Shown here: positions 25,701-55,100 of the stretch, piece after piece
Numbering within the stretch: the stretch's first letter is position 1
How the letters are laid out: each line of letters begins with the position of its first letter
Assembly (NCBI RefSeq): GCF_028641065.1
Contig: NC_073404.1
Coordinates: forward strand, 18,600,001 to 18,664,000
Length of the DNA stretch: 64,000 bases
DNA from: Leucoraja erinacea
Lineage: Eukaryota
Reading direction: 5' to 3'
The notes under the pieces: model-generated
Database searches by the model: none
Told to the model about the DNA's origin: nothing
What the model saw: the letters and a program-made list of their open reading frames with translations, nothing else
Made by a program: the position numbers and the translations under genes

Positions 25701-28700
25701 ACAATTGCATTTATCCTTCTTGACCATATTCTCACATCGTCCCTAGGATCTTTCCTGATATTTTTTTATAAAGTGTATTTACTTTGAGCCACTTTATCTA
25801 CATGGGCTCAGATGAGGCCTGACTGGTTAACAGTTCTGTTTTTTTGTGAGATGTTGATCAAAGGCAAAATTATTGTCCAGGACATTGAGAGAATCTACTG
25901 CTGGTCTTTAAATGGTGCCATGGTATTTATAATGTTGACTATGATAGACAGACAAGAAACAGTGCTTCGCCATCTATGTTATGCTGATTTCATGCCCCGA
26001 GTCCAAAAAACGTGAACTGTCTTACTGTACTTACAGTAACCACAGTATGAGTATGATCCTACTATTCACAAATCAATGTATGAAGAGAATTACATAAGAC
26101 CTAGGAATATTGGCTGATTACTTCAATGTCTTTCTAATATGACAATGTGGGGAAGGCTAACTCAGTAAATGTTAGGGACCAAATCTGAGACTTAATTGGT
26201 TGGATGTTGATAATTCTCTAATCATCTCATTCAGAACAAATGCAATTGTGTTAAACACTGGATGCATTACCTATGTTGCTGTTTAAAGGCAGTGAATTCA
26301 AGAGGAAAGTTGCCAGTGGTTGTAGATTCTTCTTTGCTTCGGATAGCTGGATTAGTCACATGATACCTCGTTCTTTTACCTGCAGTTTGTAGACCCCCCC
26401 CCCCCCCCCCCCAGATTCTGTTTCCATCCCCCTCAAAGCTTCTACTGCATCATTTTCTCAGCATTGTTATAAGGGGCTGCTATAATATCCCAGATTTTGC
26501 CTTTCTTTCCAGATTACCGACTGCCCCGTTATGTCAGAGTGAATCTGCTGAAAACCAACATGGAGGATGTCATTGACTATTTCAAGCGCGAGGATTACCT
26601 TTACCTCGGGCAGGCAACTGAGTAGGTTTGATATTTTTCTTCGTTAGCAGGCACAAGATAATTTCAGAAGAGGTTATGAAAGTCAAGGTTGGTTCACATT
26701 GGTTCCTGAACCATAGGGATGCTGAAGGCTTGCAGTCCACATGGGGTGGAAGATTGCAACCTTTACGAGGTCCGCCCTGTTTCGACGAATGCAATCAGCC
26801 CGGCGTGCACAAGATCAAATAGAACAAGTTGTCCGACAACTTTAGGCTGTGCACGCCATACGCCAGAAGAAGAAGCAGTCCACATGAGGGTCCTGGGATT
26901 TACCAACTTGATGTTAGAGCTTCATGTTCAGTCTGTTTTGGTGATTACTGCTTTCTGGTAACTTTATGTTAAGTTTAGTGAAAGTCTCGCCATTTTTCAT
27001 ATTTACAATATAAAATGAAATTTAAAATGCTGTAAACACTCAGGCAGTATCTGTTGATTAGTTCATGTTTCAGGTCTGAGACTCTTTCTCCCACTTGAAA
27101 ATGCGAGGAAACAAATTAGTTCCTAGTTGCAGTGAATGGGCAGAACAAATGAATATCCTTGATGGGGTGAGACCGCATGTAACAATTGTAAGCAGATGAT
27201 GCTTCTTTATCTGCGTTGTGAGTTGCTAGTAGGAGGGACGTGGCCAGCAGGTCAACCTGTACTAATGGAGAACAGGGGAAAGAAACAGAGCCAGAATCAC
27301 AGATGGACAATTGGCAGAAATGACCAATTCTGATACAGACACAAAGAAAGAGCGAGTTATGTCAACTTGGATTATTTGATGTTGAGTTCTGAAGCTTACA
27401 ATGTGTCCAGATGCGAGATGAGGTGTTGTTCCTCAAGCGTTGGGCCTTCTTGTAACTGTGCAGGAGGCCACATACAGATGGGTCAGAGCAAGAGTTCAAG
27501 AGTCAATAGTATTTTGTTGTCATTGGACGGAGAATTAAAGCAGCAGGCAACCGGAAGCTCAGGACCACTCTTGTGGGCTGGACACAGGTGTGTTGCAGTC
27601 TGTGTATTGCTTCTCCAATGTAGAGGAGACAATACAATGCAATACTACTTTATTAGCCAAATATGTTTTGCAACATTACGAGGAATTTGCCAAGTCAGTC
27701 ATACAAATAAAAAGCACCAGAACACACAAAATACATTTTAACATAAACATCCACCACAGATTTCTCACTGTGACGGAAGGCGAAAAAAAAGTTCAATCTC
27801 TTCCCGTTTACCACATTGCAAACATCAAATAATAATAATAATAATAATAACTTTATTTGTTAAGCACCTTAAAAACAACCAAAGCTGACCAAAGTGCTGT
27901 GCAGAAAAAAGAAAACAAGCAAGACATCATAAAACAGGCAGAACAACAGTACATACAACTAACACGAGGCGCATAAATTACATACAAAAATCCAAACAAT
28001 AAATTAAAAAACATAAAACACGAGGACGAACAACGCAGCAAAACCAAGCAAATAAAGTTAATAAACAATTCAACACCTCACTGGTCTACAAAGGCCATGG
28101 AGAATAGATATGTCTTCAGGAGTGACTTAAAAACAGCTAGAGAAGGGGCCTGTTTAACGTGCAGAGGCAATTCATTCCACAATCTCGGAGCCGACACAGC
28201 AAAGGCACGGTCCCCTCTGAGCTTCCGCTTAGTCTTTGGCTCAATCAGGAGCAGCTGATCATCTGACCTGAGAGAGCGGGAGGGCGAATAAGGGTGAAGA
28301 AGCTTAGATAGGTAGGACGGGGCAAGACCACTTAGGGATTTAAAAGTAAATAAAAGAATTTTAAAACGAATCCTATACTGAATAGGCAGCCAGTGAAGAG
28401 AGGCCAAAAGGTGTGAAACATGATCATGCTTTCGTGTGCCAGTCAAGAGACGAACAGCTGCATTCTGTACCATCTGGAGACGGGCGATGGAGGACCGACT
28501 AACCCCCAGATACAGTGCATTGCAGTAATCCAGCCGGGTGGTAACAAAGGCATGGATTACCGTCTCAAAGTGCTGCCTTGACAAAATCGGCTTTATTTTT
28601 GCCAGTACACTAGAATGGGAAAAGTGCACGTGACTTTGCCTGAGAATATGGTGTGGGTCCCTGGCTGGCATTTCCTATTGTATGGATGCGGTGTGCCGAA

Positions 28701-52100: not shown

Positions 52101-55100
52101 CATTCCATATACCCATCATTCTCAGTATGAAAAAATTGCTCACCAGGATCTGATTAAATCTTAGGTCGACACAAAATGCTGGAGTAACTCAGTAGTAACA
52201 GGCAGCATCTCCAGAGAGAAGGAATGGGTGACGTTTCGGGTCAAAACCCTTCTTCAGACTGAATTTCCTATTAAACAATTTCCTATTAAAACTGAATTTC
52301 CTATTAAATTTTTCTCCCCTCACCGTAAGCCTATATCCTTTCGTCCTCAATCCCCCGATCTTGGAAAAAAGACTAATTGCATTCATACTTTCTATTCCCT
52401 TCATGATCCTAACATAACTTGTGTCCAAAATCTATTTGAAATAATGCATTTCCAAATCCTTATCCTATCCATGATGCTCATTCCAAATTATTGCACCTTG
52501 TGCTAAAGCACTGGACACCCTGGAACAATCAAGCTTTGGAAACTGACATGGTAACACTTTCTATCAATTCTTGTCGAATTTCATCTTCTTCTTGCATATG
52601 GCGTGCACAGCCTAAAGTTGTAGGACAACTTGTTCTATTTGATCTTATTTGACTGTGCACGCCGGGTGGATTGCATTTGTCAAACAGGGCGGACCACGTG
52701 AAGGTTGCAATCTTCCACCCCGTCGAATTTCATGGGGCAAGAATATATTAAAAATGGAAAAAACATTTACACTATTGCTCACATTGTCATTATTGAAATT
52801 CAAGATAATAGTTCTATTGTCTATTTGAAAAAAATTGCAAAGTGAACATACTTCTCTAACATAAATAGCACTAAAGCAAAGAGTACCATATCGAAACAAA
52901 ATAACCTTCCTTCCATCTACACTTCACATTGCTCCTACAAGGCCACATTCGTAATCATGGATCAGTCTCTCCAAGGATACTCCCTCTTCTTCCCTCTCCC
53001 ATCAGGCAAGAGGTACAGACGTGTGAAAACACATACCTCCAGATTCAGGGACAGTTTCTTCGTAGCTGTTATTAGACAACTGAAGTATCCAATCACCAAC
53101 TAGAGAACTGCCCTGACCTACCATATACCTCATTGGAGATCCTCAGACTATCTTTAAGCAGACTTTACTGCACTTTATCTTGCACCAAACATTATTCCCT
53201 TTATCCTGCAACTGTACAGGTTCGATTGTAATCGTGTATAGTCTTTCCACTGACTGGATAGCACTCAACGGGCAGCATGGTGGCATAGCGGTAGAGCTAC
53301 TGCCTTACAGCGCCAGAGACCCGGGTTCGATCCCGATTACGGGTGCTATTTATACGGAGTTTCTACGTTCTCCCCATGACCTGCATGGGTTTTCTCCAAG
53401 ATCTTCAGTTTCCACCCACGTTCCAAAGACGTACAGGTTTGTAGGTTAATTGGCTTGGTGTAAATGTAAATTGTCCCTAGTGCGTGTGGGATAGTGTTAA
53501 CGTGCAGGGATCGCTGATCAGTGCGGACTCGGTGGGCGTGTTTCCACGGTGTATTTCTAACCTAAACCAAAAAAAAAAACTTTTCACTGAACCTCAATAC
53601 TTTTGACAAACTAAAATACCGTAACAAAGATAGAATATCATGAGAACATTCTTCTGTTCAAGGTCAATAAGATCTACATTTCCTGCTAATTCCAAAGTAT
53701 TAACAAGGAAAATAACTAAAGGTCATTGGCCATGCAAAGCATTCCCTAGCAACAAAAGCCCCCACTTCCAAACAGCAGCGAAAAATACCATAAAGAGAGG
53801 TGCAGTTACAACACAGACATAGAATCTGCTTGAACAAATTAAAGCAGCTCAACGTGTGTCACATACAAATTTTGATAATCATTAACTTTGCAGAAAAGCG
53901 TATTTTTCATAAAAGTACTCGCTCATCAGATATATGTGCAACATCAGGTTTGGATTGTTATTCCATATCTGCAGTGACAGTGTAATTAAACATAGTATTT
54001 GAAATTGACTTAAGATCCCATGACCTGCGTGGGTTTTCTCCAAGATCTTCAGTTTCCACCCACGTTCCAAAGACGTACAGGTTTGTTGGTAAATTGGCTT
54101 GGTATAAATGTAAATTGCCCCAAGTGTATGTGGGATAGTATTAATTTGCGGGTATCACTGGTCAGTGCGAGCTCGGTGGGTCAAAGGGCCTATTTCCGCA
54201 TTGTATCTCTAAACTAAAAAAAAAAATCAGTTTACAGGATAAAAATATGGCATTTTCCGTAAGATTCTGTAATGCACAAATGACTGCATTTGCATTGTCA
54301 GATGACGTCTAAACTGTGTCCTTGAAATTAAACTGAGAGCAGCTATCTCAACATTAATACAACCAAATTGGTTTCTTTACAAGTCATGGGTTAATTAATG
54401 CAAGTAATATATTGTCCTGACCAAGGAATTATCATTAAAATGCTATTTTAAATTGACATTCATTTTCAAACAATGCCTACAAAGAATGTGAACTGGCTGA
54501 CAGTTTTAGTTTCAGGACAAAGAGGTAAATTCAGTCAAATATGGCACAAAATTATTTAAAAAAAACTCTTCATGAAGTGTCTCAATCTGAAATATCAACT
54601 CTTTTTCAACAGATTCCACCCTTTGAGTGCTTCTAACATTTTATTTTTATTTCTGCATTCATCAGGTCAAGGCTGATTTGATCACTAGTCTCAACTCTAC
54701 TTTCCTGCTTGGCCTGAAAAACCGTTGATTCCCCCATTGTCCAACAATCTCCCTCAGCTTTCATACCCAGCATCCACAATTCATCCAAAACAGGTTTAGA
54801 AACATAGAAAATAGGTGCAGGAGGAGGCCGTTCGTCCCTTCGAGCCAGCACCGCCATTCGTTGTGATGATGGCTGATCGTCCCCAATCAATAACCCGTGC
54901 CTGCCTTCTCCCCATATCCTTTGATTCTACTAGCCCCCAGAGCTCTGTCTAACTTTGTGGAGATTCAGTTTATAATTATACCCAAGACATATTGATAGAT
55001 TGTTCAAATATTATGGGGGTTAAGAGATATGGGATTATAGAAAGGTGGTGCTGGAATACAAGATAAGTTTCAATCCTACTGACTTGCATGCAAACACAAA

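Follow-up and report, generated by a model that had tools for sequence, protein, structure and literature searches.

What kind of retroposon begins at exactly the same base in three separate copies, lacks a promoter for RNA polymerase III (Pol III) and ends in a GAA tail? The question is raised by three short repeats in a 64-kb stretch of the Leucoraja erinacea genome (contig NC_073404.1, positions 18,600,001 to 18,664,000; here called the window). The first-pass annotation had described them as a SINE-like (short interspersed nuclear element) family headed by a minimal ribozyme of the hepatitis delta virus (HDV)/CPEB3 type. A short non-autonomous retroposon with an HDV/CPEB3-type fold lacking P4 was supported, but it was found to be a bipartite internal-deletion derivative of a Vingi-type long interspersed nuclear element (LINE) and not a new SINE class. 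Overall, the short family is best read as a bipartite non-autonomous LINE of the SIDE/RIME type, formed by internal deletion of a Vingi-type family, termed family B, and carrying a P4-less head that would cleave itself (probability about 0.82).

Copies of the short family in the window

Exactly three family copies were detected in the window by BLAST (E 1e-38 or better), and nhmmer agreed. Their coordinates and lengths were confirmed, as were the flush target-site duplications (TSDs), which measure 11, 13 and 12 bp, the GAA tails and the identity of the first seven bases. The copies and the parts of copy 1 are as follows.

26743..26874, + strand: copy 1, 132 bp, in sense orientation in an intron of an NSUN5-like gene, with two L3 substitutions
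26732..26742, + strand: left TSD of copy 1, 11 bp; the right repeat is 26875-26885
26743..26796, + strand: head of copy 1, a 54-nucleotide (nt) P4-less HDV-like fold according to sequence and alignment
26743-49 with 26772-78, + strand: P1; J1/2 is 26750-51
26752-58 with 26790-96, + strand: P2
26759-61 with 26769-71, + strand: P3; L3 is 26762-68
26764 with 26779, + strand: P1.1
26781-85, + strand: 5-nt loop replacing P4
26786, + strand: predicted catalytic C
26797..26823, + strand: remainder of the part that comes from the Vingi 5' untranslated region (UTR); a 10-bp stem has its 5' arm here (26802-26811)
26824..26828, + strand: 5-nt linker at the deletion junction, absent from both parent ends
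26829..26874, + strand: Vingi 3'-end part with the last codons and stop of the parent open reading frame (ORF), a short 3' UTR and the GAA tail
26848-26857, + strand: 3' arm of the 10-bp stem, inside the short 3' UTR
36334..36463, + strand: copy 2, 130 bp, with a 13-bp TSD at 36321-36333 and 36464-36476
52585..52721, - strand: copy 3, 137 bp, with a 12-bp TSD at 52722-52733 and 52573-52584
52721-52669, - strand: head of copy 3, with a 4-nt loop and every pair and the catalytic C intact

The proposed lack of a Pol III head held up. ARAGORN returned no tRNA in the window, the best A-box match had three mismatches, and two B-box-like matches with one mismatch were at chance level. The head is the 5' end of a LINE, as set out below.

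Alignment of the copies showed the annotated 54-nt HDV parse to be correct for the family majority. The annotation had lacked the caveat that copies 1 and 2 carry core changes. One of the two L3 changes in copy 1 converts the P1.1 pair from C-G to U-G. In copy 2, about 1 kb past an NSUN5-like exon on the same strand, P3 is broken, as is part of P1, and a T occupies the position of the catalytic C. Among the window copies, only copy 3 kept the whole fold together with the catalytic C. Both copies with core mutations lie on the strand of the NSUN5-like gene, and the intact copy 3 lies on the opposite strand. This pattern fits selection against cutting of the host pre-mRNA, in a sample of three copies and beside a gene of unmapped 3' extent.

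Fold of the 54-nt head

A strict descriptor of the fold returned 67 matches in 1.04 Mb of fetched sequence. All of these were element heads and none occurred in two shuffles, so the fold is not due to chance. The catalytic C (C44) was present in 94 of 101 short copies and in 16 of 16 parent heads, and A46 in all 101 short copies. A catalytic C followed two bases on by an A was conserved in each family parsed. Common non-CpG head variants among 102 short copies were restricted to nt 8 (J1/2), nt 32 (U-A to U-G) and nt 45 (after the catalytic C), the latter two being the sole head variants listed in four public sequencing runs. The tolerated nature of all three sites (p ~0.015) is suggestive, as about a quarter of substitutions would be tolerated by the scoring used. 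The 54-nt head was inherited, already P4-less, from family B, in which the U-G pair of the short family is a Watson-Crick U-A; P4 is replaced by 5 nt in both. Close variants with a longer P4 were not found in the genome; 14 matches represented local duplications or insertions.

Judged by sequence, the first 54 nt are very probably a P4-less homologue of the HDV/CPEB3-type fold, related to the heads of other Vingi families. The head is HDV-like by its nested P1/P2/P3/P1.1 pseudoknot, covariation, G1 at the 5' end and catalytic C, with an Rfam score below the cut-off. It does not belong to the theta ribozymes, which are characterised by a phage genome and a tRNA 3' end, since it heads an animal retroposon with no tRNA.

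Family size and 5' ends

At least 12,446 places in the 2.19-Gb genome matched a 20-mer across the internal junction with up to two mismatches, compared with 20 for the reversed control. This figure is a lower bound on copy number and corresponds to a genome average of about one copy per 176 kb; a density of one copy per 20 kb, extrapolated from the window, was wrong. The short element has no ORF.

All 30 loci picked via the 3' half alone carried the head to about G1, although some of them share flanks or repeat earlier loci. Of the first 40 loci on contig 1 that match the junction exactly, two of which resemble one duplicated site, 29 aligned from nt 1 and 35 from nt 1-6. Two others started at nt 9-14 and three were truncated at nt 60-81. 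A TSD ending no more than 2 nt from G1 was found in 28 of these 40 copies, and TSDs of the family measured about 7-15 bp. The proposed coincidence of the 5' end with the predicted cleavage site was thus recovered beyond the window, at nt 1 in 29 of 40 junction-picked copies. Sequencing runs of five organisms contain the short element, with no RNA run among the listed runs that hold it. In four public runs, comprising contigs with no RNA-start information, the flanks diverge mostly at G1.

Origin from a Vingi-type LINE

Family B ends in the last 39-46 nt of the short element, including the stop codon and the GAA tail. Its 5' end corresponds to nt 1-77/79 of the short element, about 175 nt upstream of the endonuclease-coding part, and colinearity of this match was seen in at least six copies. 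Because family B matches both ends, the short element is bipartite and consists of parent nt 1-79, the 5-nt linker and about the last 46 nt of the parent. The commonest, longer short copies carry a later tandem duplication of 8-10 nt in the part derived from the 5' UTR. There is little doubt that the short family is an internally deleted, Vingi-derived element. It outnumbers family B. Divergence was 4.5% for parent heads versus 2.8% for short copies, the latter set being biased towards young copies.

No intact ORF was present among 42 family B loci (longest piece 298 amino acids (aa)); the copies are colinear and all broken. An intact relative, P0002, has a single ORF of 1019 aa with apurinic/apyrimidinic endonuclease (APE) and reverse transcriptase (RT), lacks RNase H and is 72% identical over the RT part. 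A Nimb control scored RNase H, unlike P0002. A 2026 review defines Vingi by this compact architecture, in which one ORF codes for APE and RT but not for RNase H (PMC13708176). By eye, the sister-family heads resemble four Repbase Vingi 5' ends printed in the supplement to PMC5786205.

The head was inverted relative to the downstream part in 11 of 17 head-bearing family B loci (L187, L190, L195, L231, L237, L239, L242, L250, L251, L253 and L254). The inverted piece stops only a few bases short of the 5' end, except in one locus where it extends to nt 39. From their sequence, these arrangements appear similar to twin-priming 5' inversions at high frequency.

A degenerate RT motif was found at 268 genomic places, representing about a dozen families. 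About a dozen Vingi-type families coexist in the genome, most of them GAA-tailed; in family A the tail is TAAA and the ORF extends into it. Searching by endonuclease family brought up LINEs that have a single ORF and lack RNase H. An RTE parent was dropped once the matching ends turned up on the Vingi-type family. The 30 best loci of an Exo_endo_phos_2 search were Nimb-type LINEs and not the parent, and a protein search with Vingi family A returned family A alone. Among four local LINE types (RTE not included) compared for the placing of the parent, Nimb scored best. A PDB sequence search gave one weak R2 match only, and homologue names gave no clade. Young Nimb-type LINEs with an open ORF2 of 1,200 aa were noted at L079, L081, L082, L093 and L105, with RNase H confirmed in L105.

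Heads of sister families and a second short family

Vingi families A, D, F and I each start with a full HDV fold including P4. With one copy per family, each row having its own decay, the native strands of five LINE families paired at 33/35 positions in P1, 29/30 in P2 and 15/15 in P3. Out of 120 permutations of the strands, 2, 2 and 4, respectively, paired as well. Families D and I have C-G as the outer P1.1 pair, and families A, B and F have U-U, an interchange supported by CPEB3 mutagenesis (PMC9901934). Forty small fetches for further LINE heads yielded three good heads and one false match of a relaxed descriptor.

Searching the genome with RF00622 gave 55 matches among 59 scored, 48 of them at or above the cut-off. 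Nine of 20 fetched matches belong to a second short family (L417-L425, e.g. G000:C23:12545446-12545511 and C18:10744277-10744340). It is about 165-180 bp long and GAA-tailed, five of the nine have recognisable TSDs, and its copy number is at least 2,980. Its copies pass or touch the cut-off of 35 (35-39 bits in six rescanned), and most have a 6-bp P1. Compared with the first family, the G-U linker is the same, the 5-nt loop differs by one base, C-N-A-A is present and the stems are unrelated. In a joint alignment of the two P4-less families over 54 columns, 96.8% of cells paired, against 40-49% in slid controls. Pairing was retained while 10 of 18 pairs changed on both sides, and U20, C22, G25, G37, C44 and A46 were kept in both families. 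The parent of the second short family was not found among the fetched loci. A further short element (L410:35-290) combines a CPEB3-like head, a Vingi C-terminal coding remnant and an A-rich tail; it is possibly a third deletion derivative.

On metagenome contigs coding related proteins, the strict fold was located 20-90 nt before the estimated ORF start at 7 of 42 loci versus 0 of 168 controls. Inspection by eye or an Rfam match adds about seven further loci, but the majority of the 42, all of which have upstream sequence, gave no fold match. Every metagenome-relative head found has a P4. Two of them (L378 and L381) share P3 and J4/2 with family B, but have a 24-nt P4 region, and could by their sequence be possible models of the state before P4 loss.

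Relationship to the CPEB3 ribozyme

The annotated resemblance to the mammalian CPEB3 ribozyme agrees with the Rfam consensus (RF00622), which shares with the short family the same L3, the G-U linker, the one-pair P1.1 and the J4/2 pattern. Unlike the short family, the CPEB3 ribozyme is single-copy, intronic and equipped with P4, and the short family has other stems. On RF00622, the heads of family F scored 60-62 bits and another family 64.9 (cut-off 35). Near-identical CPEB3-like Vingi-type heads were observed at L324:263-336, L327, L407-L416 and L426. The supplement to PMC5786205 prints a gharial Vingi-2 5' end. Compared by eye with the Rfam CPEB3 consensus, it agrees in 38 of the 40 bases that lead to the P4 start and in 14 of 14 from the P4 end onward. 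Alligator SINE2-1_AMi, compared by eye in the same supplement, has the same P4 stem as the consensus. Because stem sequences vary freely among the other heads of the clade, near-identity of this kind argues for descent over convergence. The mammalian CPEB3 ribozyme thus probably descends from a Vingi-type 5' end, as far as sequence comparison can tell.

No paper linking CPEB3, ribozyme and Vingi, and no mention of the near-identity of a Repbase Vingi 5' end to the mammalian CPEB3 ribozyme, was found in the literature searched. Neither 'transpos' nor 'origin' occurs in the main text of a paper on ancestral CPEB3 ribozymes. An HDV review lists CPEB3-related sequences in lamprey, lancelet and sea urchin, in a passage that does not name Vingi. 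It appears fairly plausible that this descent is unreported. A broader proposition, to be both true and unpublished, holds that CPEB3-type ribozymes are the standard Vingi 5' end, that the mammalian CPEB3 intronic ribozyme is the retained 5' end of an ancient insertion of a Vingi or a Vingi-derived SINE, and that in this vertebrate the two short derivatives, each cut down to a 54-nt P4-less ribozyme and a 3' handle, account for more than 15,000 insertions, up to a few thousand of them able to cut host pre-mRNAs. It is given slightly better than even odds.

Comparison with known systems

The bipartite architecture is already known; according to Kojima 2018, non-autonomous LINEs of bipartite build are produced by RTE, Ingi, Vingi and R2. 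Drosophila R2 SIDEs likewise join a 5' HDV-like ribozyme to a LINE 3' end by internal deletion and are mobilised in trans (PMC3414825). Cleavage was demonstrated there. SIDEs are about 530 bp long in one case, specific to ribosomal DNA and low in copy number (PMC3414825), in contrast to the dispersed short family of 130-140 bp with more than 12,000 copies, an APE-type parent and no P4. In the sister clade Ingi/L1Tc, RIME, NARTc and SIDER are short dispersed derivatives that keep the ribozyme-bearing 5' hallmark; they differ in being trypanosomal and in Pr77 having P4 and a proven promoter, and are likened here by description (PMC4035085). Non-autonomous Vingi derivatives (Vingi-1_EE) share the clade and the origin by internal deletion (PMC5786205). 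Some non-autonomous SINEs use hammerhead or HDV-like ribozymes according to a review.

The statement that P4-less forms come mainly from metagenomes and phages stood in part. In one survey such folds are mostly phage-borne (PMC10879173), but silkmoth R2 and abalone have them too (PMC3774820), and absence of P4 is not unique to the short family. Minimal delta-like and theta ribozymes share the lack of P4 and a catalytic C placed first in J4/2; theta ribozymes differ in being phage-borne and often tRNA-linked (PMC10879173). The abalone ribozyme also has 5 nt replacing P4, and the silkmoth R2 ribozyme has a J1/2 of more than 200 nt, unlike the 2-nt J1/2 within the 54-nt fold of the short family (PMC3774820). 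A ribozyme in Vingi was not found in the literature searched, with Repbase, Dfam and patents lying outside it, and an earlier mention is possible. Vingi is not among Kojima's six ribozyme-bearing clades.

Proposed mechanism and alternative explanations

RNA of a source copy would cut itself just 5' of G1, which would fix the 5' end whatever transcript carried it. Cleavage would leave a 5'-OH end independent of the transcription start, and the folded head may also shield this uncapped end. The Vingi APE-RT protein would recognise the 3' stem and tail and copy the RNA by target-primed reverse transcription at a nick. Shared ends and tail point to mobilisation in trans by the parent protein. Work on R2, SIDE and L1Tc underlies this scheme (PMC3414825, PMC4035085, PMC6765202). 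By analogy with these systems, active cleavage in source copies is likely, and a supply of RNA mainly by host read-through transcripts would be somewhat favoured. The deletion juxtaposes nt 60-69 and the 3' UTR as the 10-bp stem, which is lengthened by one substitution relative to the parent, and the 5-nt linker completes a small hairpin. In this structural model, stem and hairpin may form a recognition handle.

Several observations weigh against a self-cleaving, Vingi-derived head. The family is far below Rfam cut-offs, with 14.6-16 bits on RF02682 (cut-off 44), aligned from G1. No Rfam model matched the 64-kb window at gathering score, and no RF00622 match for the short family was obtained in the scans run; only the sister heads pass that model. 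The case for a ribozyme therefore rests on comparison between families. The covariation between the two short families is effectively one lineage contrast and not 14 independent events, and the pair-count measure of their alignment was reached by 46 of 500 shuffles. The whole fold was retained in only 11 of 37 junction-selected copies, and minimum-energy folding, which excludes pseudoknots, gave P2 and the 3' stem only (z -1.8). Parent 5' ends were ragged by BLAST: of 17 heads, a single one began at nt 1, another at nt 39 and the other 15 between nt 2 and nt 13. An RNA of about 135 nt is easily copied whole, and uniform ends show a defined RNA start and not its origin. Cleavage and RNA ends are predictions from sequence and fold, and the name Vingi rests on architecture and by-eye head likeness, not on a tree with reference proteins.

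The uniform 5' ends suit a promoter route and a cleavage route equally. The head could act mainly as an internal RNA polymerase II (Pol II) promoter of the Pr77 kind, with a start at G1 and self-cleavage as a back-up. Pr77 of Ingi/L1Tc is both promoter and ribozyme (PMC3383444, PMC4035085), and Kojima 2018 expects Pol II transcription of bipartite LINEs. Selection on a DNA promoter motif would not predict the turnover of stem sequences between families with pairing kept, nor is it favoured by the retention, in all parsed families, of the catalytic C and of an A at the second base after it; a chiefly promoter function is possible, though rather unlikely. Catalysis might also have been lost with P4, the family spreading because the Vingi protein is bound, or 5' exonucleases are blocked, by its fold. 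The P4 of all metagenome-relative heads found is in line with such a loss, as are the weak cleavage of P4-less silkmoth R2 ribozymes, about 10-25% at best (PMC3774820), and an R2 module for which the fold is described as protective (PMC13708176). Minimal P4-less ribozymes are, however, active in vitro (PMC10879173), the six bases listed above were kept by two P4-less families with unrelated stems, and exact G1 ends would lack an explanation with neither cleavage nor promoter, which makes a catalytically dead head improbable. A conventional Pol III SINE, or a short repeat with stems that pair by chance, would agree with the SINE-like size, TSDs and tail and with the lack of an Rfam match at gathering score. 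It is refuted by the match of the head to the parent LINE's own 5' end, by the empty descriptor shuffles and by the two-family covariation, and, with no tRNA or A box, its probability is minimal.

Genomic neighbourhood

The NSUN5-like gene and a TRIM gene with RING, B-box and PRY-SPRY domains are arranged head to head in the window. The neighbouring features are as follows.

3726-19585, - strand: TRIM gene
24624-35379, + strand: NSUN5-like gene
about 24.9 kb, 33220-33318 and 35296-35379, + strand: NSUN5-like exons
22367-22648: GC-rich tandem array of 18/23 bp, just before the first NSUN5-like coding exon
60632-62055: Tc1-like DDE transposase remnant, near the window end

Significance

With the proposed heads, the Vingi clade would join the LINEs with HDV-like ribozymes. 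The short family would be a natural high-copy vertebrate case of the HDV fold at its smallest, and about a hundred natural variants of it are available for testing. Vingi-1 is under engineering for gene insertion with its native 5' UTR (PMC13708176), and a self-cleaving 5' module would bear on the design of its template. Sense intronic copies could cut host transcripts, and a measurable orientation bias is therefore predicted. For the memory-linked mammalian CPEB3 ribozyme, a Vingi-type 5' end offers a concrete and testable origin.

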